Shown one piece after another: positions 9,001 to 59,196 of a stretch of 64,000 bases of DNA. Source of the stretch: Barthelona sp. PAP020 (Eukaryota); contig JARQWU010000023.1 of NCBI GenBank assembly GCA_040182905.1, positions 1 through 64,000 on the forward strand. Direction: 5' to 3'. Position 1 is the stretch's first letter. Every line of letters starts with the position of its first letter. The translations under genes and the position numbers were made by a program. Below the pieces are notes generated by a model. It made no database searches, was not told the DNA's origin, and worked only from the letters and a program-made list of their open reading frames with translations.

Positions 9001-9246
9001 ATACTGTCAGAGTAAATGTCAATAGAGTTAATCCAATATGTATAAAACCATATTTATTGTTTCAAGTTTTTTTTTTTTCAGGTTCCAGAATTTTTTTTTT
9101 TTTTGAAAAGAAATTTTATTCATTCATTGGAAAGCAGATTTTTTTCTTAAAATTGCCATTGATTTGAAAAAATTGCTTAAAAATATTCAAAGAGAGAGAG
9201 AAAAAAAAGGAAAAATTGAGATGTATATTATTTATTTTTGAGAAAG

Positions 9247-10440
9247 ATGGATGAAATTAAAAAATATGAGCGAATAATAAAAGTGATTAATGAAAATAAA
9301 ACGTATGCCGTAAATGAAACAAAAGTTGAGACTATTAAAGGACTTCTTTCAGAATTTATGTGGCAATGTGAATATTCACCACTTGGTGATTTTCTTGCTA
9401 TTCTTGATTGGGGTGGAAAAATATTTTTACTGAACGTTGCTGATCTTCAAGCATGTAACATTCAATTTTCTTTCTTTAATTCAACGTTTTTTGATTTAAA
9501 GTTTTCTTACAATGGAGAATTCTTGGCCACATGTACCGATTCTAAAAGGGTTTTAATTTTTGATATCAAAACCTGTGATCTCTTCCGAGAATTCAGAACA
9601 ACAAAAGATATGGTTTCTGTTGGTTTTTCTCTTTGTTCTAATTATATTTTTGGAGCTGGAGAAGATGGTTGTATTATGAAATGGGATATTAGGGAAAATA
9701 AACTTGTTTCAGATTTCCAATTTTTAGAAGATTTCATTCAAAAATTGATACTATCACCTGATGGAAAGTATTTTTTGGTTGTCAATATTACTTGCACAGT
9801 TTTTTTGATTGATGCTGATGATTATTCTATTCTTAAACGATTTGAGCATGATGGTGATATTTTTGACGCTGCTTTTCATCCAAAAAGTCATGAAATTGCA
9901 ATTTCAGACCGTACTGATAATGTTAAGATCTGGAGTTGTGAAAATGGTGAGTTGCTTCATTCATTTTGTGTTAATTCTGGGTTACAAAAGCTTCAATACA
10001 TTGGAAACAGTATTTTAAGTGGATTAACAAATGATGGATTTCTTTTGTTTTTCAGAAGAGGTGATTTTCACTTGAATCAAAAGGTTTATATTGGTTGTGA
10101 CGAAGATTTTTCTTCTTTTGCTATTTCAAATGATGAAACAAGTTTGATTTGTGGAAAATGCAATGATAATGAAATCAAGTGCTTTCAACTTGATTTTGAC
10201 CTGTCAAAACATGCGGAAATTATTGAATTATCTAAACCTGATGGTTTTGTCATATCGACCCTCATTTCAATGAACTTTTCAAATCAGACAATCAGACAGT
10301 TAATATCTTCTGGTATTCACATAAATCAACAGGAATATAATTTGGTGATTGATATGTCTTGGGATTTGGTTGATTTCAACGAAAACAATGGTGGTAACAT
10401 GCATGAATTTGTTACTGATCAAAATAATGATCACAATTAA
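9247..10440 (+). CDS. WD40-repeat protein
   Basis: Repeated FSxxGxxLA / WD / FHP units; ATG at 9247. Confidence 0.85.
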   Translation: MDEIKKYERIIKVINENKTYAVNETKVETIKGLLSEFMWQCEYSPLGDFLAILDWGGKIFLLNVADLQACNIQFSFFNSTFFDLKFSYNGEFLATCTDSKRVLIFDIKTCDLFREFRTTKDMVSVGFSLCSNYIFGAGEDGCIMKWDIRENKLVSDFQFLEDFIQKLILSPDGKYFLVVNITCTVFLIDADDYSILKRFEHDGDIFDAAFHPKSHEIAISDRTDNVKIWSCENGELLHSFCVNSGLQKLQYIGNSILSGLTNDGFLLFFRRGDFHLNQKVYIGCDEDFSSFAISNDETSLICGKCNDNEIKCFQLDFDLSKHAEIIELSKPDGFVISTLISMNFSNQTIRQLISSGIHINQQEYNLVIDMSWDLVDFNENNGGNMHEFVTDQNNDHN

Positions 10441-10719
10441 ATTGATGATAATCAGGAGAGTTTGTATTTGAAAGGTGTGCTCATATGTTGCTGTTTTATT
10501 TTAATTTTTTATTGATTTGACATAAAATTTGAATTTTAAAGGTGCAAAATGGTTATTTTTTTTTTTAATCAGCATTTCACAAAAAGTTATATTGGTTTTC
10601 AGATGGAGTGGAAAAAATGAAATTTTTGTTGTATTTTCACTTGTGTTTGGTCAAAGAAGGAAAATCATTGAATTTAGATTCAAAGGATAGACATTATCTT
10701 TCATAACAGAATTAATTTT

Positions 10720-11150
10720 GATTGTAGCAAACTTCCCAAGTGCAATTTCTTTTTTATTTTTCTTCTTGTACGAACCTTTTCCAGAACTTTCCCAAATTAG
10801 AGACTGGGAAAACTTAGTTTATTGATAAACAATAAACCTTAATCTTTATTCTTTTGGGTGGTCCAGCGTTCCTGAAAGGAACCTCTCTTTTTTGGGACCT
10901 ACTCTTTCATAGGCTTTCGTAGGAGAGCTACGCCCTATGCTGGATGTGAAATACTGCATTACTAATTGCTCAAAAGAGCTTAAAGCTCCAATATTTTTAA
11001 AAATATATCCTAATTGTGCAAGTTTTCATGCATTCACCGTGGCAGGTCAAAAATTTGGGGTAAGGTTAAGGAAAAGTTCCGTACCTCGAGGGAAAAAGTA
11101 AGAATCGGAAAATTTCGATTCGCCAAAAATAATAGGCTTGTGAACAACCC
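10720..11150 (+). ncRNA. Candidate highly structured ncRNA, family unassigned
   Basis: No ORF, raised GC, nested long-range helices and several hairpins, with wobble pairs consistently G-U on the + strand. Confidence 0.65.
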
Positions 11151-11493
11151 TCTTTTTATTTTTTTGAAGTTGAACGTAAAAATTTAAAGTTTTAACCCAG
11201 AAACAAAGATTAAAAAGGGTTAAAAGGTGTCATGCCATATTTTTTATTTTAAGAGAAAGTGAAGTTGAAAACTTGATTGAATAATGAATTCTCAAAGTAC
11301 TAAAGTTTATCAGTGATTAATGTTTTGATTATTGTTGGTATTGTCTTCAAAGCTTGAAAGTTTTGAGATAAATAATAAATAAATGAATAATGCTTTATTT
11401 TACTGTGGTAACGTACAAATTAGTAACGTTTTTATTCACAGAATACGAATTTGCACCAATTTATTGGGAAAAAATAGAAAAGAGATTTTACCC

Positions 11494-12189
11494 TCAAAAA
11501 ACAAAATTTTTGTATGTAATAACATACAGATACCATATACATACAAAAATTACCCATAAATTGTAAATAATATGAATTTTTGAAGTAAGTTCTGGTATAA
11601 CTTGTTTGAAATCGACATTGTGATTGATTTTTTTCGTTAAACCAGAATAAACACTTCCATCTGATTGAACAAATACAGAAAAAACCTTCCCAATTTTAAA
11701 ACACTTAATCTCTTGAATATTTACATTATTCTTTCCATTAATTACACTTTTTTTTTTATACAGTTGTACCATTGTTTTATAATGAAAATACGACAGAAAA
11801 GGTAAAAATAAAATAATGAAAGCTAACCAACTTACATAGGAAGAGGAATATAAAATGGACTGTCTAAAAGTGACATGAATGGCTTTTAAAAAAGAAAATA
11901 CAATGATACAATCTATTAAAATATTTGAAATTGAAAGAATACTCATGAAAAATAAATAAATTGTGCTTCTCTTCTTCGAACCACAAAATATATAATTAAT
12001 AAAATAGCTCGTTAGTATTCTTGTTAAGATATTGATAATTATTAATCCGACAATAAAATTAAATAAAGTTCGAAATCCATAAAAATATGTTGTTACAGCT
12101 TTTAATATGAAATTTAAAAGCTCAAATCCATTTAAAATCTTTAAGTAATTTAAAAAAACATTAACAACAGCAGTTTGATAATTTTTCAT
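11494..12189 (-). CDS. Hypothetical multi-pass membrane protein
   Basis: 231-aa ORF with about 5 hydrophobic segments. Confidence 0.6.
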   Translation of the reverse strand: MKNYQTAVVNVFLNYLKILNGFELLNFILKAVTTYFYGFRTLFNFIVGLIIINILTRILTSYFINYIFCGSKKRSTIYLFFMSILSISNILIDCIIVFSFLKAIHVTFRQSILYSSSYVSWLAFIILFLPFLSYFHYKTMVQLYKKKSVINGKNNVNIQEIKCFKIGKVFSVFVQSDGSVYSGLTKKINHNVDFKQVIPELTSKIHIIYNLWVIFVCIWYLYVITYKNFVF

Positions 12190-21573: not shown

Positions 21574-22492
21574 TTGATTTAAAATACAAATAGAAACCAT
21601 AATATGTTTTGAACAAGAAAAAAATTAACAAAATAGTGTAAAAAGTTTTTTTTCATTTTTATTTCCAACTAAAAATGCGCTGTGTGTATGAGTGAATTAA
21701 AAAAACCGTTTTAGTTTTTGTGATCAATGTGGAATTGCAGAGATTTATTTCATAAGAGAGGAAAAAAATAAATTAAAATAATTAAAAAAAAAAAATATTT
21801 AAAATGTGAGCAACCTTGTGATCCACTTTTTTAACAAATTTTTAAAGTACAGTAGCCTTATTTGGGTGGATAGAACAAGAAAAAGTGAATCTTTTCACAA
21901 AAGATATTTTATGATAATAAGATGAGGTTAGAAGAAATATTTAATCGGTCAAAATTTGTAAAATAGAACTGGATCTTATTCTTAAACCAATCACATGTAT
22001 TACCAAGAAAGTCAAACAATAAAAAAACCTATTTGGTTCAATTTTTAAAGCGAGCAATGATTACAGAATAGAATTATTGATCAAATTTTTAAATTAGGGA
22101 AAATTGTGTAATCTTTCCATTCTTATGATTATTCAAAAGAATTTCTCCAGAGTAAACTTTTGCTTGAAAACATTCTTTCTTTTTAACAGACTAATTAGAT
22201 CTTTAAAGTCTTTAACCAAGAAAAAGGATCATATCTTTATTTGTTCATCCATCTTCTCACTGCTTTCTGATGAAGAAATAATAAAAATATATTATTTCAC
22301 AAAAGCTAAACATGTTTTGCATCAACGGAACTTTTGGGTGTCTTTTAATTAAAGCAATTGAAAGATTGAAGGAATAATTTTGTGATTTGATCTGTTTTTT
22401 TTTTTTGAAACATGTTTTAACGATACCCTAATCAAAAAAAAAAAGCATATGCACTCCAATTTGGCAAAAACTAGATTTTTTATAAGATTTGA

Positions 22493-23545: not shown

Positions 23546-23966
23546 TATTCATATATTGGAAAAAATAAAATCAAATATGTTAAAAAATTTCTGAACTATG
23601 AAAAGGCAAGAAATCCCACTCTCACAAATTGAAATAATTTTTCAACTATTCCACATTTTTTTGTGTGTAATAAAAGAAATTAGCCTTCAAATTTTACAAA
23701 ATAACGAACAATAAAAAACTGTTTTTTGTTTTCCCTTATCTTTTCATGCTTCACAACTATTTGCTTTCAATTTATCAAATAGATTTTATTGGGAGTTAGC
23801 AAAATAACCAAGAAAATCATTAAAAATAGAAATGATTTCTAGTTGCATAAGATAAGGCTTTATGAATATATAACAAAATAATAATTTTAAAATTGCACTG
23901 TTGGTGGAAAAATAAAAAAGAAAAAAAATTTGGGAAACTTTTCTTCTTCTTCAAACATTTTTCATT

Positions 23967-40484: not shown

Positions 40485-41973
40485 ATGTCATTTACGAGCG
40501 ACGATGTTAATCAATTGGTATTTAATTATATGTTAGAATCTGGAATGGAACATACAGCCTTTACTTTCTTTCATGAATCTTTATTGAAAGAAAGTGATTT
40601 AATGGATAGTAGTGTCATGCCAGGACAGCTTATTACATATTTGCAAAAAGGATTATTATACAGTGATCTTGAAGAGCATTTACAAGAGGTATATTCATTC
40701 ACAAAATTTACAATCTAATTTTTAGGACGGTTCTTTAAAAGAATGTTCTTCTGTTTTTAGTTTAGTACATCCACATGTTTGTCAGTCACAACCAAGCAAA
40801 ATACCTCTGCTTTTGGATGGGCATTTGAGAAAGTTAGATAAGAGAAAACCTGTTTTATACACGTCTTTTTCGTCAAATTTTCCTTATTTGGCCTGTTTTT
40901 CCAAATATTGTGTGATTATTCATCATTTAAATCTTATTAATGGAGGATTTCCGGGTGGAACTGAACCTAGAATTAGTATTGATGAAAAAGCTGTTGATGT
41001 TACTGAAATAATTTCAAAATTTGAGGATAAAGAAGTTGTTAATAATACAAAAGTGTCTTCAATGTGCTGGCATCCTTCTAAAGTAAATTTAACAGTTGGT
41101 ACTGAAAGTGGCCATGTCATTTCATTATATGTTGATAATTCTAGCATTCCAAAGATCTCTAATTTCAATTCTTCAAGAATACTTCGTTTGCGTTGGCATG
41201 AAAGTGGCGATTATTTGATTTGTTTAACAAAGGATGGCAAAGTGACTGTATTAACCCATGACTTAACATTACAACAAACATGGCAACCTTTTCAATTTCC
41301 AGCTACTCAGTGTCGTTGGAATCCAGTAAACAAATTACAATTCTCTGTATCTTCAAAAGATTCTGAAGATTTGTTAATCTTCACATTGGGTGAAGAAGAA
41401 CCTCAAAGAATCAATTGTCCTTGGAATGTTGATCAATTTTCTTATTCTTTAACGGCTGAATATTTAGCTATTTCTGGAAATGGTATTGTACAAATATATT
41501 CTTTCAAAGAACAAAGAGTTATTAGAGAAACAATGTTAGGAACAACTCCCCTCGACTTAATATGGTATTTGGGTTCTGATAAACTTGAATATGTGTTGAC
41601 AGGACCCCACGAAAATTTTGCCATATTAAAGATACCAGCAACTCCTTCATCACCTAATGATGAACCTGAACCACTGATCACCACTTCAGCTTCTGGTGAA
41701 ATGACTGCCATCGCTATTTCTCCTGGCCATAAATATTTGGCTTTTGGTTATAGGTCAAGGTGGTTATTCTTTTTCAATTTGCGTGCAGGCAAAATTGTGA
41801 TGAGAACATATTTGAACTCTGCTATAAATCACATTCATTGGAAGGATGATGAAATCTTTTCAGTTTGCTCCAATCAAAAGAATCAGCATTCTTATGTTTG
41901 GTTGGGTCACATGAGTGAATTGTTTCCTCTCGCTACAAATAGTTCTGACAGTTTTGAAAATGCTTTACAATAA
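40485..41973 (+). CDS. TBL1: TBL1/Sif2-like LisH-WD40 protein (exons 40485-40688 and 40726-41973)
   Basis: MSFTSDDVNQLVFNYMLESG..AFTF LisH; splicing gives in-frame LQE|DGSLKEC and joins the 40813..41973 WD40 ORF. Confidence 0.85.
40689..40725 (+). other. 37-nt phase-0 spliceosomal intron
   Basis: GTATAT...CTAAT (branch point, 40715)...TTTTAG; its removal restores the frame. Confidence 0.9.
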
Positions 41974-48584: not shown

Positions 48585-51500
48585 TTTTATATGCGAACGC
48601 TCGTCTGATTGTTCTCATCGTCTGACGATTCTGAGACGCTGTGACCCGAAAATCTCTCATAATCGTTTACGATGGCACAATCAGCATAATGTTCTGCTAA
48701 ACCTGGTGAGTTCCAACCTCCTGCGGCGCGAACAACTTCCATGTCGGTATGTTTATCCTTTAGTTCTTTAGCCCGTCCTCGGCGGAAAGAATGGAGCAGT
48801 ATGTCCCTAGGTAAATTTCTTTCCTTCGTCCAAGCACGTATTCGAGTGTTTAAAGTTTTCATTAACTCAGTCTTCTCTTGTTTTCTAGCTTTCAGGATCT
48901 TCACCTTGTTCCGAACGAGATTTTGGAAGAATTCCTTACCTTGTGGGTGTTCGTTCAATTCTTGTTCGTTTATAGGGATCGTTTTGCTTGTGTCGTTCTT
49001 CTTAGCATAGATCGAAACCTGTACATTCCCGTCTTGTACTACTACTGCTGAATTCCCCAACTCTAGGTCGCTTCTTCGGGAACATGTGAAATATAAAGCC
49101 AGCGCGGTATCCCTGACATCTTCGCCCTCCGTTTCCTTGATGTATTCTGCCAAGTCCCAGACTTGACTCTTGGAGATTCCTCTTTGATCTCTTATTATGG
49201 GCTCTAAGCCTTTCCTACGTTGTTCATGTCGGTGGCTCATAGCTTTCTTATGTCTTTCGAAAGCGGGGTCCGGAGCCCAACCTAAGGCCCCCCAGAAGTA
49301 TTGTACGGCGGAATACATCGACTGTAATCTTGCCACGCCTACTTTATATGACCCATCTGCTCTCAACTCATTACCACATTCATTAATGAATTTATGTAGA
49401 ACCGTCTCTGCTTGCTTATTCACTTCTGCTGGAACTGCTTCATATAACTTCCCGTAGTACTGGAGGTATTTGTTGTAAATGCTCCGATATTGGTTCCAAG
49501 TTCCTACTGCCACGCCGTCTTTGAGCAGTTCTAATGTAAAAGGGTCAGCCAAACCGCTTAATACAGTTTCGACCTCCTGAAGTTCCTCGTTTCCTTTACT
49601 ACTTAGCCGGTGTGACAAATCAAGACCATCGATTCTCAGAGTCGGTTTATCTCCTTTTGTTTCTGCCACGTAATACCTCCATGGAAGCCAAGTATTGAGT
49701 CGCGCCCCGTAGATATCGATCTCTTTGCCAAAACTCATTGCTCGTAACATGAGATCCAGAACCATGTTCTCCGAAGTTTCTTTGTAAGCCCATCCGCCTT
49801 TGTAGGATTCCACTTCTGCGTAGAATAGGATACTTTCATACCCCCAAGCGGCTTTGGCTTCCTTTTCATCTAAGCTAATGGAGCTTTCCATCGGTGTGGA
49901 AAGGTGAGACGTTTCTAACATCTTTCGTGTGATAACCTCCGGATATTTTCCAAATGCCATCTTATGACGTCGGGCAACTGTCCTTATCTTCCTGCTTTTA
50001 TCTTGCAGACTTTTCCCTGTTCTGTTCTTAATTCTTGGACATTCTCGGACCATAGAAAACGTTTCATTCGTATAGTCTGGGATTTCAAAACTTGTGGGAC
50101 ATAAGGTAAGGTCACCAAAGAGGGTATTATCCTTTATTCTAACAGGTTTATCCCTGCTCAACATGTCTGCAACCTTATTTCGATCAGTAGGAATCCACAT
50201 GGGTATCACTTTAAGATTAAGTTCCTCCATGCGTCTCCATATCCTATTTGACATGTTCCGTAGTGAGTCTTTTACACTTCGCGCTCTTCTGAAAGCACTC
50301 AAGGCGACTTGGTTATCCACGAGCCACACCCAACAACCATTGAGTGCTTTTTCTGGGAAAAACTCAATAGCTTCTTCCAAAGCTGATAACTCTAAGAGGT
50401 CAATTTGTTTAGGAAGCTCTTTCTTTGGTTTTCTCTTCCGCATTCGTTTCTCCTCTTTTGTTTCCAATGCAATGCCAATACCGTTAAGAGATGCGTCGGT
50501 AGCAACGGTCGCTGTTACAACTCTTGGTGAAAGGTCTCCTCTAATTTCTAACTTTAACCAAGCTGATATCTCTTCTCTTAGATGAAGGGGCATGGTAAGT
50601 TTTGTAGAGTTGTGTAGCCTAACAAAATCTTCCATTGAAGAAGCTCCAAAGCGAAACATCTGATGTTTGACGAAATTGCTTATCTCCAAAGATAATCTTC
50701 TGTACTTTTGATGGACAATTGAAGCCGATTGGAGCTTTCCTTGCAGACTTGCTATCTCAGATAGTGTCATCACGTCCTTCGTCATATCTAGCATCTTCTC
50801 TCTTTTATCCCGAGGCAGGCTAATTCTTCGACTTTTTAAATCAAGGTCGAAACCTAGGTATTTCACCTCTTGGTCTGGTTTCTGGGTTTTACTTGATTTT
50901 ACTTTGAAACCAACTCCGTTCAGTAACTTCTTGGTGTGGTCTAATGCCTTTTCGGTTTCTTCTTTAGTCCTTCCTCCGATAAGCAAATCATCTACATATT
51001 GAAGGACAAAGAAACCATCTGCTCTTACTCTCTCAACCACAACCTGTAAAACCATGGTAAACATTTGAGCTGCAACTGATGAACCGAAAGGAAGTCTTTT
51101 AGCCCCGTATGTTTTCCCGTTTACTTTTACTTGAGTTAAACTAGCCCATTCCTCTGAGAGTGGTATATGAGTGTAACCGCTTTCAATATCAATCACTGCA
51201 GCCCACTCAGGAATTAAGGGAAAATATTTCAAAGTGTTAACTTCCGTGGCCCACAGAACACTTTTAGCATTCAGTTCTCTGCAGTCCAAGATTGGGCGAA
51301 TATCATCAACGCCCTTTGGAACTGCGCCAAGACCTGCTGTCAATCCTTTTGAAGGAGTGATCTCCTCTAAGACTCCCATTTCAATCATCTTATTTAACGC
51401 CTTCTCTTCATCAATACCAGCCCAATTTTGAACTTTAGCTGAGAGATTTGTGCCTTCATCAAGAAGAGTGGGTGCCCCTTCGATTAAACTTTTTAGAAAC

Positions 51501-52401
51501 CGTTTAGTCTCTGTATTGTAGCCAAGGGAAGTTGCGATTTTTTCAAAGTTTTCCCAGCACCAGTTCCCATCAATATCTTTTGGGGTACTTGATGATTTTG
51601 CAATACGGACTTCAGGGACGACGTGTGCTACCTGATCCCTTCTTTTCTTGATAACACTTAGTGTTTTGTCTTTTTTCTCTTCCGATTGCGGAAGCTGAGG
51701 TTTCTTGGGTAAATTCTTCTCTTTCTGTTCATTTTTTTTGGTTGGTTCTTTTTCCAAATAAGAAAAAGTTTTGTTTTTATTTGAATTTTTTTGGATTTCC
51801 AGAGGTAAGGCTACTCCAAAGCGATTGAAGCACATATCTATTAAGTCTTTGGCATATCTGTCGCCTGTTCTCATTGTTAAAATCTTTACAATGGCCGATT
51901 TGACCGCTGAATAGATTTCATCGTTGACACCATCGTCCCATCTGTATAAATGTAATTCGTCCAAAAAAATTCCCATAGTTAAGGCAATAACAGCAACGTT
52001 TTGAGCCTCGAATGCACCGTCTTGTCCTGCGAGTGCATCTCGTACATCTTTCGCACGAAAAATCTCTTGAAGAATCGAATTCGTCGTTCTAGCTGTTTCT
52101 GCTTTTACGTTGAGGAATGCAGGTCCATTTTCGTTGGATAGCCTCAACGATTTGGCAAATATTTCTGCCAATTTTTCGACACCTATTGGTGTTGTATCCT
52201 CTTTGTTGTTCATGAGTGTATTACTTCAAAAATAACGGTAAATGTTCGATATGAGGATCACGAATAAGTATTTTGAGAACGATTCTTTATGTTTCTCAAA
52301 TAAGTCTTGTGTCTTCCAACTTACCAACCAGTTGATATCAGTTTTGAGTGTTTGCTGTCGTCACTCAATTGGGATGTTTTATGGAGTCTCTTTACGGAAA
52401 A
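48511..52401 (-). mobile_element. Tyrosine-recombinase (DIRS-superfamily-like) retrotransposon, single ORF, apparently intact
   Basis: GC clearly above host; termini TTTTCCGT (48511-18) / ACGGAAAA (52394-401); GTTC direct repeat at 48507-10 and 52402-05; RT-RH-YR ORF. Confidence 0.88.
48587..52213 (-). CDS. Polyprotein: putative Gag-like N-terminus, reverse transcriptase, RNase H, unknown domain, tyrosine recombinase
   Basis: RT: VPK..IRPILDCRELN, IDIESGYTHIP, LPFG, YVDD (aa 406), YLGF. RH: TDAS (572), LLELSA, VDN, NKVADMLSR. YR: R1046, HSFR (1141), W1167, Y1176. Confidence 0.93.
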   Translation of the reverse strand: MNNKEDTTPIGVEKLAEIFAKSLRLSNENGPAFLNVKAETARTTNSILQEIFRAKDVRDALAGQDGAFEAQNVAVIALTMGIFLDELHLYRWDDGVNDEIYSAVKSAIVKILTMRTGDRYAKDLIDMCFNRFGVALPLEIQKNSNKNKTFSYLEKEPTKKNEQKEKNLPKKPQLPQSEEKKDKTLSVIKKRRDQVAHVVPEVRIAKSSSTPKDIDGNWCWENFEKIATSLGYNTETKRFLKSLIEGAPTLLDEGTNLSAKVQNWAGIDEEKALNKMIEMGVLEEITPSKGLTAGLGAVPKGVDDIRPILDCRELNAKSVLWATEVNTLKYFPLIPEWAAVIDIESGYTHIPLSEEWASLTQVKVNGKTYGAKRLPFGSSVAAQMFTMVLQVVVERVRADGFFVLQYVDDLLIGGRTKEETEKALDHTKKLLNGVGFKVKSSKTQKPDQEVKYLGFDLDLKSRRISLPRDKREKMLDMTKDVMTLSEIASLQGKLQSASIVHQKYRRLSLEISNFVKHQMFRFGASSMEDFVRLHNSTKLTMPLHLREEISAWLKLEIRGDLSPRVVTATVATDASLNGIGIALETKEEKRMRKRKPKKELPKQIDLLELSALEEAIEFFPEKALNGCWVWLVDNQVALSAFRRARSVKDSLRNMSNRIWRRMEELNLKVIPMWIPTDRNKVADMLSRDKPVRIKDNTLFGDLTLCPTSFEIPDYTNETFSMVRECPRIKNRTGKSLQDKSRKIRTVARRHKMAFGKYPEVITRKMLETSHLSTPMESSISLDEKEAKAAWGYESILFYAEVESYKGGWAYKETSENMVLDLMLRAMSFGKEIDIYGARLNTWLPWRYYVAETKGDKPTLRIDGLDLSHRLSSKGNEELQEVETVLSGLADPFTLELLKDGVAVGTWNQYRSIYNKYLQYYGKLYEAVPAEVNKQAETVLHKFINECGNELRADGSYKVGVARLQSMYSAVQYFWGALGWAPDPAFERHKKAMSHRHEQRRKGLEPIIRDQRGISKSQVWDLAEYIKETEGEDVRDTALALYFTCSRRSDLELGNSAVVVQDGNVQVSIYAKKNDTSKTIPINEQELNEHPQGKEFFQNLVRNKVKILKARKQEKTELMKTLNTRIRAWTKERNLPRDILLHSFRRGRAKELKDKHTDMEVVRAAGGWNSPGLAEHYADCAIVNDYERFSGHSVSESSDDENNQTSVRI

Positions 52402-52701: not shown

Positions 52702-55437
52702 ATGAATAAACCAACGAAAAATAATCGAGTTAATGCAATTGTATCTGATCTAATGGGATTTGTAACAAAAATTTCTCAATTTGAAAGACTAAACAGAACT
52801 AAATTGGATGAAAAAGAAATAGCGGAATATTTATCCAATGGTATACCAGCTGTTGGGGGAATGTCACGGACAAATGGTGTTTCTTTATTAAAAAATTCTG
52901 TACATTTGCAAAACAAAGCTTCCAATACCAAACAAACTTCACAACCCATTGCATCTTCTTTGCCGAAAACTAAAAAAGTATCAAATAACCAATATACTCC
53001 AATCATTATTCCTGTTGATATTTTTTCTGAGCTTTTACCTAAAACTTCAGATCATGTATATCAAAAGAAGGACGCAATATCTTTATACGTTGAAACAATT
53101 GTGGAAGAAGCTTTACAAAGGAAGTTAGTCAAAATCAAATTTAACATCAATGACATTCCCTTCATTATTAATTCTTCCTTTATTTTTACGACTATTTTTC
53201 CATATATTAATGAAAAAAACATAACTAAACCCAAAAAATTCCAAAAAATATTGGATACTGTTGAAGTTCAACGTATGCTTGAGGCATTGGTGTGGTTTGT
53301 ACATATGAGAGAATTTGAGATCAACAATATGACTGAAGAAAATCAATTTGTAAATTTGGAATCAAATCCAGCAATAATTCAGGATATTTATGAAAGAGAG
53401 GGATGGCTATTAACCATCTTAACTCATGGATATACTTCGGTGTTTGTTTCTTTGGATAGTGGACAGTTTCAACATCACAGTGATTCTGATCGGTCAGAAT
53501 TTTTAACTTTTTTCCCTATTGTCATGGCATATGCTGTATTGTCTGTATTTTATCACTGTTTTCCTGCTTGTAATGAAGTGTATACGGCTCAATTTCTTAT
53601 TGACGTTTATCAATTAGTTTCTTTATTGTTTAACGGTATTCCTTATAGTGTTAGTTTAATTAATGAGTATAGACAGAAGTTTTTCATTGTGAATGAATTG
53701 AAGTGTTTTAGTGAGAATTCACCAGTGAAAATCCATTCAAAAATTCCATTATCTGCTGGATTTAACAAGAAAGAAAACATTTTAAAGAATCATATCAATT
53801 TAGATAGTCCTATTGTATTGTCAAAGAACGTTTCTTCACCCAATCCTAATTCTCCCAACAAACGATGTTTCAGTCGGTCTTTGACTCCTGATTTAACCAA
53901 TAAGAACAGACATGTAAAATGGCAAGATACTGATTCAAATCGTCCTAAATCTCAATTAGCTATGAATACTCCTTTAAATAGCTCATCATCTTCAAAAAAT
54001 CAGCATTATCATCTTCAAACACCAAAACCTGAAGTAAAATCAAAAAAACAAAAAGATTCTGATTCATATAAGTTTCCACAACTTCCTTCATCTCCATCAT
54101 CATCAGCAGTTGGTACGAAAATTGCAAAAAAGTATCAAAATTCAACATTGAATACCCCCATCGATAAACAAACACCTATAACAAATAAAGTTGATGAAAA
54201 AATCAAAACTAAGACAAATATTAGATCCAATCGAAGAAATGGAAGTATAAAGAAACAAGCTACAATTTTCCCCACACCCGTTGGAGAAACCTCAAGTAAT
54301 AATCAAATACCAGGCCAACAATTAAATGTCGATGTTCAAGTAAAACTTTCCAGAGATAGCAGAAAGAGATTACTTGTACGCCCAAAGAAATTCAATTCGC
54401 TTGCAAAATCACCGTTACTTGATCCGTCATTGTATTCAGTTGTTTCATTAAAACCTGCTAAAGATATTGATACTATTCATTTGAGACATATTGGTGATTT
54501 AGAACGAAGAACTGAATTGGATTTAAATTTGGATGAAGAGAAATTGGAAGTTGGAATTTTGACTAAAAACCAAAGATATCAGCAAATAATGAAAGATTTG
54601 CATATTTCTGAAGATTATGAAGAGTTTTTTAATAAAACAGTTCAAACTTTCACTCCTGGAAAAAAAGCTGTTTACATACTTCATCCATCTGTTAACACAA
54701 CAAAATCTTCCCCTTATGTTAATGGAAGACTATTTCCACTCGGTATTGAATTGAATGGTCCAGAAATGGATAAGATTAATCAAGAAATAGGAAAAGTTGA
54801 GAAAAATACCATCGACCAATTAATTGAAAATGAAATAAGCTATTTTGAAAACAAATTAAGACTAAAGGCTCAAACACCTTTAGAAAGAGCAGTTTTTGTG
54901 AGAAAAATGTTGGAAAGGAGCAAATTATACAATAGAAACAAAGGATTATCAGTTTCTTTGACAGATTTAAAATTGCAAAAGAAAAAAGAAACTTTGGAAG
55001 CTCAAGTGGATAAGATTTTGAGAGATGAAAAACTTTTGCAAAATTATGCTATGGATTTGGATAAAAAGAAACGAGAATTTGAAGAAAATGAAGAAGTCAG
55101 GGAAGAAGAAGATGTGTTTTCACTTATAGACCACAGCAAAGCGGATGAACAAAGAAGACCTTCTTTATTACCAACATTACCAATTTCAATCAACACAAGA
55201 AGATCAAGTGTGATTCAACTCACTGAACGAACGGTTCATCCTGATACAATTGATGAAGATATTGCTGTTGCAACTACATTCATGAATGATGATGTGGCTC
55301 CTATGGCAGTAGGTAGAAGAATGTCTACTGGATTAGCTATGGACGTTGGTTTGCCTTGGGAAGACATAATTGATCCAATTGTTGCTCTGAGTGAAGAAAG
55401 TGATTATGAATGGGATCCTGCCGATATTGTAAATTAA
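52702..55437 (+). CDS. FAM227-like (FWWh domain) protein with long disordered tail
   Basis: EALVWFVHMREF..HGYTSVF..FLTFFPIVMAYAVLSVFYHCFP..F..LLFNGI pattern. Confidence 0.55.
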   Translation: MNKPTKNNRVNAIVSDLMGFVTKISQFERLNRTKLDEKEIAEYLSNGIPAVGGMSRTNGVSLLKNSVHLQNKASNTKQTSQPIASSLPKTKKVSNNQYTPIIIPVDIFSELLPKTSDHVYQKKDAISLYVETIVEEALQRKLVKIKFNINDIPFIINSSFIFTTIFPYINEKNITKPKKFQKILDTVEVQRMLEALVWFVHMREFEINNMTEENQFVNLESNPAIIQDIYEREGWLLTILTHGYTSVFVSLDSGQFQHHSDSDRSEFLTFFPIVMAYAVLSVFYHCFPACNEVYTAQFLIDVYQLVSLLFNGIPYSVSLINEYRQKFFIVNELKCFSENSPVKIHSKIPLSAGFNKKENILKNHINLDSPIVLSKNVSSPNPNSPNKRCFSRSLTPDLTNKNRHVKWQDTDSNRPKSQLAMNTPLNSSSSSKNQHYHLQTPKPEVKSKKQKDSDSYKFPQLPSSPSSSAVGTKIAKKYQNSTLNTPIDKQTPITNKVDEKIKTKTNIRSNRRNGSIKKQATIFPTPVGETSSNNQIPGQQLNVDVQVKLSRDSRKRLLVRPKKFNSLAKSPLLDPSLYSVVSLKPAKDIDTIHLRHIGDLERRTELDLNLDEEKLEVGILTKNQRYQQIMKDLHISEDYEEFFNKTVQTFTPGKKAVYILHPSVNTTKSSPYVNGRLFPLGIELNGPEMDKINQEIGKVEKNTIDQLIENEISYFENKLRLKAQTPLERAVFVRKMLERSKLYNRNKGLSVSLTDLKLQKKKETLEAQVDKILRDEKLLQNYAMDLDKKKREFEENEEVREEEDVFSLIDHSKADEQRRPSLLPTLPISINTRRSSVIQLTERTVHPDTIDEDIAVATTFMNDDVAPMAVGRRMSTGLAMDVGLPWEDIIDPIVALSEESDYEWDPADIVN

Positions 55438-56439: not shown

Positions 56440-59196
56440 TTACCTGACTTTTCTGATGATACCTTTCCTTGGGTCTTGGTCGTCTGTACCGTCTGGAATC
56501 CAAATGAAACCTCTCTGAATGAATGTGGGGGAATTGTAGAACTTTCTTAAATCTGTTGAGATGTCTTTACACTTTTCATAGAATTCACCCACATCTGTTT
56601 CAAGATCGAACTGATCAATTGAACGCAGCTCCAGAACGTTATCTGCATCCAAAATATTGAATTTTCTGTTCATCTGATGCTTTCTCAATTCGAGTAGCTT
56701 GTACATTAAGATTTCGGGGATATTACCGCTCAACACGATATAATTGCTGAAGTCACGTTGCAACTTCTGACTAATTCTGTATCTTTGTGTGCCTATGAAG
56801 CTCTCCAAAACCATTTTGATTGCCAAATCGACATCGTCAACAGATACCTGTTGTGCCAATCTCATCTTTGCAAATGCTTCCGAGATTCTTACGATAGCTT
56901 CTAAATCACGAATGTAAACGTGCTGGGCATTTCCCTCGTTCTTGATGGTCTGTCTCAGCTTTGTGTAAAATTTGATTATCTTGTCATGCAAATGATGGCC
57001 AAACGATGGTTTACTAAATTGTCTGGCGTAAATGATGTATTTTTTAAGCATTTCTGGTGGTATCAATTCTTGACCTGTTATTGGCGATTTGTTGATATCT
57101 TGCAGATTGTTCACCCAGTCCCATTGCAATGGAACACTGTCCGGACCCTTCAAAATGGCGTCTCCCATTGATAGGTCTTTGTAAAGTGGATGCTGTGTGA
57201 TGTGGTTGAGAAGCACAAATTCTGCCAACTGTCCGTCGTTGTCGGGGTTAATAATGTCCTGAAGAACACAACAAATATCAAAACGACTGAGAATGGGGTC
57301 AGACAAATCAACGTTTTGCGTCAAAGGCAGCGATGCATCATACCTGCCCTTGGATGGATTTGCAGCAGCAATAACAGCGCAACGGGCATGGAGTGATGCA
57401 ACAATACCTGCCTTGGCCACGGAAACTTTTTGTTGTTCAAGGGCTTCGTGGATGGATGAACGGTCTTTCTCGGTCATCTTGTCAATTTCGTCGATAAGAC
57501 AGACCCCATTGTCTGCTAAGACAAGAGCTCCTCCTTCGAGCGTCCACTCACGTGTAATGGGGTCTTTGTGCACAGTGGCTGTGAGACCAACGGCTGAGGC
57601 ACCCTTTCCAGTTGTGTATACAGATCTTTTTGCACATTTTTCGGCAAACTTCAAAAACTGAGACTTTGCAACACCGGGGTCACCAACCAAAAGCACATTG
57701 ATATCTCCTCTGATTCTGTAGCTCTTATCACCTGCTTCCTTAACCATACCTCCGAACAACGAGGCAGCTATGGCTCTTTTTACATCCAGGTGTCCATAGA
57801 TTGTTGGTGCAATGGATTCGACTATACGGGACTGGATTTGCTCGCTTTTGCTGAGCTTCAAAATTTCCTGGATGTCGTTCTGCGTCAAGTCGTTGTTAAT
57901 CGAGCGCTGGGGGTTTGAAATGTTGTTTGCCTCGATAACAGTGTCAAAAACAATAAAACTGTTGATCATCGACCGCAGATCGTCCTTCTTGTGAATATAC
58001 TTTCCGGTGATCTCCACAAGGTCACCGGGGCTCGCCTGTTCTGCAAGATCTCCGGTGAGAATAACTGTTTTTTGACGGGGCAACCGACCTGCTGGTATTG
58101 AACCAGGAGGCTCCTGAATCTTCAGGGTTTGGTAGTTTATAAATTCTGTCTCGTTTGTCTCCTGTACAAAAGCAGGATTGTCACAGCCAGTACATGTTTT
58201 CGGTCTGTCGATCTTTGGGCCACTGAAATCGTTGGCCTTGAAAACAGTGAATGTTCGGGTCAGGGTGCCGCAACTCGTGCATTTGTACCTCACTTTGTGC
58301 AGATACGGTGATACAGGGGACCTTCGGGTGACAATTGCCTCAACCTTGACTAATTTATTAATATGCTGCTGTCTCAGCTCTCTTAAAAGCGTAACTGGTC
58401 CATAATTGTCGAATCGGATATGCACATTCTGAATAATGGAGCTGTAGTTTGGGTGCAGCTTCTCAGCCATGTCGACCAAAACATCATCCAAAATTGGTAA
58501 AACTTGAGAAGGGTATTTGGCAACCCAATCAGCAATGACAGACCATTGAGTAATAGCTATATTGTTGTCTACATCTCTTCGATAAATGCACAGATCATTG
58601 TAGTCCACAGAAAGTGACATCTCATTGTTTTCACACATGGAATGAACTCGTTCAATGTACTTAAAACTACCACTACTCGTTTTGTCGGGACAATTAAACA
58701 AAAAGTCCATAAACTGATAATATATGGATCTCTCCAAGTTATTGCGTTCCTGGGAATTATTGAAATATCTAACAGGCTCATTGATCTCGGTTAAGTCAAC
58801 CTGAATTTCATTTGGATCTGCTTCCCGCATCATCTCATCATCTAAAATATTATATCTCATTCTCGTATCACGTTCAATAAAATCCTCCAAATCATCAAAC
58901 TCAGTTTCACCCAATTCCTGTCTTCGACGGGAAATCTCATCCCTAACCAATCTTGGCAACAATCGTTCCATTCGCGATGTAAATATTCTTTGATTTGTGT
59001 GTCTTTCATCAATTTCTCTCTCCGCTGCAAGTCTCTGCGCAGGAGTAATATCTGCATATTCATTAAAATCTAAGTTGGAAGTATCATATTCGTCCAGTTC
59101 AGGTCTAGATTCATAATCTCCAGCAATGGTATCAAATAAGTCTTCCTCAGAATCTGAGCCTGAATCAGAATTGTACGATTCAAATGGTTGACTCAT
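56440..59196 (-). CDS. MCM2: DNA replication licensing factor MCM2
   Basis: LDEYD histone-binding N-terminus, C4 zinc finger, GDPGVAKSQ, REWTLEGGALVLAD, IDEIDKM, LSRFD. Confidence 0.95.
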   Translation of the reverse strand: MSQPFESYNSDSGSDSEEDLFDTIAGDYESRPELDEYDTSNLDFNEYADITPAQRLAAEREIDERHTNQRIFTSRMERLLPRLVRDEISRRRQELGETEFDDLEDFIERDTRMRYNILDDEMMREADPNEIQVDLTEINEPVRYFNNSQERNNLERSIYYQFMDFLFNCPDKTSSGSFKYIERVHSMCENNEMSLSVDYNDLCIYRRDVDNNIAITQWSVIADWVAKYPSQVLPILDDVLVDMAEKLHPNYSSIIQNVHIRFDNYGPVTLLRELRQQHINKLVKVEAIVTRRSPVSPYLHKVRYKCTSCGTLTRTFTVFKANDFSGPKIDRPKTCTGCDNPAFVQETNETEFINYQTLKIQEPPGSIPAGRLPRQKTVILTGDLAEQASPGDLVEITGKYIHKKDDLRSMINSFIVFDTVIEANNISNPQRSINNDLTQNDIQEILKLSKSEQIQSRIVESIAPTIYGHLDVKRAIAASLFGGMVKEAGDKSYRIRGDINVLLVGDPGVAKSQFLKFAEKCAKRSVYTTGKGASAVGLTATVHKDPITREWTLEGGALVLADNGVCLIDEIDKMTEKDRSSIHEALEQQKVSVAKAGIVASLHARCAVIAAANPSKGRYDASLPLTQNVDLSDPILSRFDICCVLQDIINPDNDGQLAEFVLLNHITQHPLYKDLSMGDAILKGPDSVPLQWDWVNNLQDINKSPITGQELIPPEMLKKYIIYARQFSKPSFGHHLHDKIIKFYTKLRQTIKNEGNAQHVYIRDLEAIVRISEAFAKMRLAQQVSVDDVDLAIKMVLESFIGTQRYRISQKLQRDFSNYIVLSGNIPEILMYKLLELRKHQMNRKFNILDADNVLELRSIDQFDLETDVGEFYEKCKDISTDLRKFYNSPTFIQRGFIWIPDGTDDQDPRKGIIRKVR

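Follow-up and report, generated by a model that had tools for sequence, protein, structure and literature searches.

What, if anything, is encoded in the largest intergenic gap of this stretch of Barthelona sp. PAP020 DNA? The stretch analyzed here (64,000 nt in all, hereafter the window) has ~30% GC and closely packed genes that are almost without introns. The gap in question measures 1053 nt and is the longest between ORFs of at least 100 aa (the next are 919, 786, 716, and 700 nt); the sequence-only reading had called it oversized. Within it lies the candidate locus, 10757-11121, which comprises 365 bases at 37% GC in flanking DNA of 23-26%. Windows of 200 nt inside the locus reach 38-39% GC, whereas none of the 139 intergenic windows examined elsewhere exceeds 34%, and the locus itself peaks at 42-48% between 10840 and 10940. 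This enrichment supports the locus independently of folding. No coding signal was found in 10757-11121, either by codon score or in a Pfam search of 8 stop-free frames (nothing below E 0.09). The locus is also single-copy within the 64 kb, the range over which copy number was checked: blastn returned no second copy, with short AT-rich pieces as the only matches elsewhere, and none of the repeat families in the window overlaps the rod described below.

Both neighbors of the gap are listed in Table 1, and letter-for-letter EukProt matches were obtained for 3 of the 7 window proteins checked. The coatomer-gamma (COPG) protein of the window shares 98% identity with a EukProt entry labeled Barthelona sp. 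PAP020, which marks the host as a barthelonid metamonad, an anaerobic protist. The right-hand ORF, at 11494-12189, has no Pfam domain, no Atlas match, and a non-coding-like codon score of -0.11. It may represent the antisense of a long + strand zf-C3Hc3H leader, with a putative start near GGGAAA at 11466. Elsewhere in the window, the MCM2 gene (56440-59196, - strand) has a GC3 of 0.44, twice that of neighboring genes; an exact copy of its protein was not found in the protein collection, and a search with MCM2 gave hits of 32-51% identity, too distant to place the host. Two short intron-like segments, at 40689-40726 and 9040-9081, start with GTAT and end in a T-run and AG, and the former breaks an ORF and carries CTAAT.

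For the earlier proposal of a highly structured RNA across 10720-11150, the folding z-score against shuffles is -2.8 over that interval; tuned ends give stronger values, -4.2 for 10756-11097 and -4.9 for 10756-11122. In a scan of 797 windows of 360 nt, made on the + strand only and with the locus window placed by hand, the locus ranks first by composition-corrected energy (robust z -3.85; next -3.06). When the starts of 11 windows were tuned alike, it kept the lead by a margin of 1 kcal. At a fixed 360 nt its shuffle z is -3.06, and 6 of 10 other windows have a stronger one. An intergenic control covering 7 of 9 gaps, with 14 shuffles per window, placed the locus first (+ strand, -3.7) and third (- strand, -3.3) among 50 window-strands, with the highest GC. 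Since coding windows attain shuffle z-scores of -3.3 to -3.9, folding alone is moderate evidence, and we take the signal to be genuine, though not overwhelming. A structured non-coding RNA without an Rfam match, as had been suggested, is supported by folding, GC content, non-coding character, and single copy in the window, and we consider it somewhat more probable than not that the locus is a structured RNA gene of some kind. Separately, the intergenic window 22124-22483 (+) has a folding z of -3.6 (14 shuffles) at 26% GC, and its other strand is without signal.

The predicted overall shape is a closing rod of ~45 bp leading to a head with four branches (Table 1). All five long-range stems and all four hairpins drawn in the sequence-only reading are present where it placed them, the stem 10768-82/11070-84 with 2 mismatches, and the ensemble gives good support to the three outermost of these stems (p 0.67-0.95). 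Its inner part held up less well. The stems 10808-15/11020-27 and 10849-58/10969-78 and the GAGAG hairpin are complementary but not preferred, and forcing these inner elements yields -107.3 and -106.1 kcal/mol versus -111.1 unforced, or 4-5 kcal worse. The ensemble instead favors GGCUUUC-GUAG-GAGAGCU at 10912-29 (p 0.92) together with the long arm at 10932-11047; two different inner folds thus come within 4 kcal of each other. On the - strand, the GAGAG pentaloop register has p 0.63. The T-runs beyond the last folded element are weak evidence for a 3' end because similar runs are common in spacers of the host genome.

Table 1. Coordinates of the candidate locus, its predicted elements, and its neighbors, as positions in the window.
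Feature	Position	Strand	Remarks
WD40 beta-propeller gene, left neighbor	9247..10440	+	exact protein in EukProt
GTGGAAAA, possible Pol II promoter motif	10608..10615	+	~150 nt upstream of rod
Possible small 5' hairpin, UGUAG (10723-27) in loop	10717..10731	+	by eye; low ensemble probability
Closing rod, 5' arm	10757..10805	+	p 0.67-0.95 (10757-98), 0.36 (10802-05)
Perfect 8-bp hairpin	10817..10837	+	p 0.92 on +, 0.98 on -
Pyrimidine-rich linker, mostly single-stranded, with template-like UAAACCUUAA	10833..10855	+	ensemble fold
Stem GGGU-GGUCC/GGACC-ACUC	10856..10904	+	p 0.76-0.80
UGAAA hairpin within stem 10856-10904	10868-82	+	firm in ensemble
CUCUCU6G tract, unpaired, within stem 10856-10904	10883-94	+	
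Hairpin, GUAG tetraloop (preferred) or GAGAG pentaloop	10912..10932	+	GUAG register p 0.92
Long irregular arm, two apical hairpins	10932..11047	+	p 0.3-0.8
A-tract CAAAAGAG in long arm	10971-78	+	
Template-like AUCCUAAU, would encode TTAGGA	11007-14	+	within long arm
Closing rod, 3' arm	11045..11096	+	stem check, ensemble
CCUUAACCUUA, 1.8 units of TTAAGG	11071-61	-	opposite strand of rod 3' arm
3' hairpin beyond rod	11102..11121	+	p 0.95-0.99, both strands
T5 and T7 runs past last folded element, possible 3' end	11153..11165	+	
231-aa ORF, right neighbor, doubtful	11494..12189	-	hydrophobic; EukProt has exact sequence

The direction of a putative transcript cannot be read from the base pairs. 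G-U wobbles had been taken to indicate selection of an RNA from the + strand, but the folding z-score is alike on both strands, a strand-neutral count over 9 partly redundant helices gives 3 G-U pairs on + and 9 on -, and among pairs with p>0.5 the counts are 13/108 on + and 10/109 on -. The ensemble is better defined on the - strand (diversity 53.5) than on the + strand (78.0). Upstream, GTGGAAAA is present at 10608 as noted previously. It occurs 9 times in the window where 5.4 copies are expected, a count equaled or exceeded in 13 of 100 shuffles and so no enrichment over the window, but the non-coding DNA, 9.6 kb in all, holds 5 of these copies. The motif K-GGAAA, picked post hoc from data already inspected, has 10 sense sites in the 130 nt upstream of 29 start codons, distributed over 9 of the 29 genes, compared with 1.3 in base shuffles, 6 antisense, and 4+4 downstream. 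It may be a barthelonid promoter element. Sites 30-120 nt upstream of start codons lie at 23904, 23932, 24565, 36547, 42122, and 44269. In the flanks of the locus, K-GGAAA occurs on the + strand only, at 10609 and 11466, which weakly favors transcription by Pol II from the + strand with a start near 10620-10720. The internal T6 run reported earlier is present at 10887-92; in the RNA it would be an internal U6, which fits Pol II but not Pol III. Together, this run and the mRNA-type upstream motif suggest that the candidate is transcribed by Pol II. We infer that the locus is transcribed, and from the + strand.

The same GGAAA sequence also allows an explanation without any RNA gene, in which inverted GGAAA/TTTCC protein-binding motifs, or a chance foldback in a GC-richer spacer, would leave the rod as a by-product. 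We regard this as a serious minority possibility, well below an even chance, because the 6 GGAAA/TTTCC sites of the locus make it the densest 365-nt stretch in the window (mean 1.3) and because DNA energy parameters give equally strong folding (z -4.92). The density was spotted after the fact and is reached by 14 of 1000 shuffles. The strongest helix of the rod consists of this motif, folding is symmetric between strands, and coding outlier windows fold comparably to the locus. Conversely, pairing in the rod extends well past the motif, into GUACG/CGUAC, CCCAAAUU/AAUUUGGG, and three local hairpins, and the most GC-rich part, 10840-10940, contains no GGAAA site.

The locus could also be a MITE-like or other non-autonomous mobile relic, or a structured piece within the long leader or trailer of an mRNA, although we consider this rather unlikely. 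The ends of the locus are imperfect inverted repeats, a DIRS-like element of similar GC lies elsewhere in the window, and the representation of 11494-12189 in EukProt implies transcription within ~370 nt of the rod. Against a mobile origin, blastn of the locus with the DIRS region and the rest of the window gave short AT-rich pieces only, the repeat families of the 64 kb spare the rod, the arms are broken by loops, and the interior of the locus is folded as well. The element just mentioned is an ORF of 1208 aa at 48587-52213 (-) with fused reverse transcriptase and tyrosine recombinase domains, which we take to be DIRS-like; its GC3 is 0.40, against ~0.22 in host genes.

If the locus is an RNA gene, does it belong to a known family? 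An Rfam covariance search of the window gave no match at gathering score, and around the locus, with E up to 10, it gave 7 and 5 matches, all at chance level. A search for tRNA and tmRNA found none. MRP/P, SRP, U3, snR30, and snRNAs were also scanned for with consensus patterns. In these scans, box C (RUGAUGA) of U3 and box C/D RNAs was absent from both strands, with the sole CUGA in the locus being internal rather than terminal as in box D, and the snR30/U17 m1/m2, U6 ACAGAGA, U5 loop, and U2 branch-site motifs were likewise absent from both strands of the locus. By eye, against the motifs of each class, we rejected group I and group II introns, the hammerhead, the U1, U2, and U3 5' boxes, and a C/D K-turn at 10718/11140. 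For H/ACA, ANANNA at 11095 and ACA at 11144 exist, but the single hairpin between them is absent. Outside the locus, a match to the snR60/Z15 box C/D snoRNA at 54577-54673 (+; 29 bits, E 1.2) lies in a coding region and is probably due to chance. A COPG-based scan of metagenomes for relatives confirmed 0 of 93 pattern matches, RNA motif patterns had no hits in viral, metagenome, or prokaryote contigs, and the only matches in phages and plasmids were short pieces at E 0.1-0.4, in 1 phage record and 8 plasmid records.

Two families had been brought up by the sequence-only reading, SRP RNA for its long helix and RNase MRP for a GARAR pentaloop, each with doubts that proved well founded, as neither the P4 pair of CR-I and CR-V nor the SRP helix-8 loop was found. 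A non-canonical SRP RNA, with a UGUNR 5' loop, a long helix 5, and an enlarged S domain, would bind SRP54 in the targeting of secretory proteins. The rod with its branched head and the UGUAG at 10723-27 are consistent with this, and GCAGGUCAAAA at 11043-53 is reminiscent of human 7SL. The hairpin around UGUAG, which would correspond to the Alu UGUNR, is not a high-probability element of the ensemble. For the symmetric loop and apical stem of helix 8, each strand of the gap offers 3 weak look-alikes, all lacking the canonical flanks, and a forced long-range CAGC/GGCA version costs 16.5 kcal. SRP models in Rfam gave no match at E up to 10. In addition, the head of ~245 nt differs from SRP RNA, as does the internal U6, which conflicts with Pol III.

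The sections of PMC4605306 used here describe non-canonical basidiomycete SRP RNAs that the candidate resembles in its long rod to a multibranch head and a possible UGUNR near the 5' end; those with helix-8 insertions evaded computational detection. They also state that the helix 6 tetraloop requires an A at the third position. The GUAG tetraloop of the candidate (10919-22, p 0.92) carries this A, a weak feature alone. The A-C/G-G symmetric loop of helix 8 with its apical tetraloop, as those sections of PMC4605306 describe it, is missing from the candidate. We retain a small chance for SRP RNA because of the shape, the UGUAG, the GUAG loop, and the helix-8 insertions known in fungi, and judge the assignment improbable overall.

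That the locus encodes a strongly diverged RNA of RNase MRP or RNase P, which would cleave pre-rRNA or pre-tRNA, appears highly improbable. The locus does allow a GAGAG-loop hairpin, and GARAR marks P8 of RNase MRP RNA in the portion of PMC13184271 used here; the corresponding portion of PMC3228867 reports that Giardia MRP RNA escaped standard models. By these partial accounts (PMC13184271, PMC3228867), the candidate resembles MRP RNA in size and in its possible GAGAG pentaloop and differs in having no CR-I, CR-V, or P4 pseudoknot, its strong stems all being nested. The earlier GARAR observation does not carry far: GAGAG is present in a less favored register than GUAG, CR-I, which together with P5 should adjoin such a loop, is absent before it, and GARAR is common, with 23 occurrences on the + strand of the gap. 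No pair of CR-I and CR-V that could form P4 exists on the + strand of the locus, and on the - strand the order is wrong for P4, with the CR-V-like match (10994) preceding the CR-I-like match (10792). Rfam was blank here as well.

The reading we prefer, at slightly less than an even chance, is that the locus is the gene of a structured RNP RNA made by Pol II, with telomerase RNA as the leading named identity. Of its two parts, some other, lineage-specific RNP RNA is a possibility we hold at well under even, and telomerase RNA itself we consider unlikely. The product of the gene, one Pol II transcript 365-430 nt long, would serve as a protein-binding scaffold. It would fold into the closing rod and branched head, and the head would display to proteins its loops (UGAAA, GUAG or GAGAG) along with its unpaired U- and A-tracts.

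Among essential RNAs in this size range, telomerase RNA is the one that tends to escape the Rfam models when the lineage is distant. Were the candidate one, we would guess that the rod closes the core, that the hairpin 10817-37 acts as the template boundary element for the linker 10833-55, that a pseudoknot spans the stem 10856-10904 through pairing of the U-tract 10887-94 and 10971-78, and that the hairpin 11102-21 is the distal stem-loop. TERT would then bind the core, copy the linker after 10817-37, and add a G-poor repeat to chromosome ends. It would be the first metamonad telomerase RNA, with Pol II transcription, a remodeled pseudoknot, and a template for a G-poor repeat (TTAAGG, TTTAAGG, or TTAGGA), in a lineage with a rapidly changing telomere repeat; we see only a slim prospect of this outcome. 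As background, the part of PMC11316075 drawn on here reports a much altered telomere repeat, TATATGGTCT, in a sister barthelonid, which makes a non-canonical template plausible, and a retained TTAGGG repeat in a skoliomonad. In the relevant passage of a 2024 review (PMC10999387), the telomerase RNA of Giardia was still not known.

Several results kept us from filing the candidate as telomerase RNA, namely that it has no canonical pseudoknot, that template-like stretches are many, and that known repeats match no better than in shuffles. The linker sequence UAAACCUUAA would encode TTTAAGG or TTAAGG, but its template likeness is not significant, as 31 of 300 shuffles match TTTAGGG equally well at one mismatch. 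A telomerase RNA should carry a template of at least one repeat plus one base that is complementary to the telomere repeat of its host. An exact template for 5 known telomere repeats, including TATATGGTCT of the sister species, is absent from the locus, and among 30 comparisons with these 5 repeats no near-template match beats shuffles at 5% (best 15/300). Template-like periodic stretches are plentiful, with 66 listed, and three candidates are self-consistent. An H-pseudoknot of telomerase type should follow the template on its 3' side and combine a P2 that is short and GC-rich, a U-rich loop of 6-8 nt, and a P3 of 7-12 bp. The search for one found 5 weak hits on the + strand, which are incompatible with the rod, and none on the - strand. 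The stems listed also allow a looser pseudoknot, 10887-94/10971-78, in which the U-rich first loop is missing. Crossing helices between unpaired regions on the + strand were equaled in 6 of 40 shuffles; on the - strand the crossing helix CUCUC/GAGAG was equaled in 1 of 40 and is not a knot of telomerase type. The hairpin 10817-37 and the rod fit the positions of the boundary element and closing helix, but the best template candidate lies partly within this hairpin.

The locus is a credible, unassigned candidate for a structured RNA in a little-studied lineage. Barthelonids are the sister group of Fornicata, and the host genome is among the smallest of free-living eukaryotes. Among the papers listed as naming Barthelona, no barthelonid non-coding RNAs came up. 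If the candidate is a telomerase RNA, searches in other metamonads, including Giardia, could start from it, and it would show the origin of a repeat such as TATATGGTCT; if another RNA, it would be a divergent or lineage-specific RNP RNA in a very small genome.

Comparison with known telomerase RNAs, as far as the parts of PMC8287931 used here describe them, reveals both differences and likenesses. Unlike those RNAs, the candidate lacks the canonical pseudoknot and its short U-rich loop, its internal U6 speaks against Pol III, its core measures ~250 nt inside the rod, and it matches no known repeat of relatives. Its elements nevertheless follow the core order given in section 29 of PMC8287931: closing helix, hairpin, single strand, U-tract stem, and downstream A-tract. 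The hairpin lies immediately 5' of a single-stranded C/A/U stretch, and a 3' stem-loop is followed by a U-run. The candidate also shares with the telomerase RNAs of ciliates, plants, and other Diaphoretickes in that source their size class and 5'-3' closing helices, and it is, like telomerase RNA, invisible to Rfam. A second likeness is to Giardia GlsR28, which in the portion of PMC3510501 considered here is an intergenic, structured RNA of a related lineage that, like our candidate, fits no RNA class.
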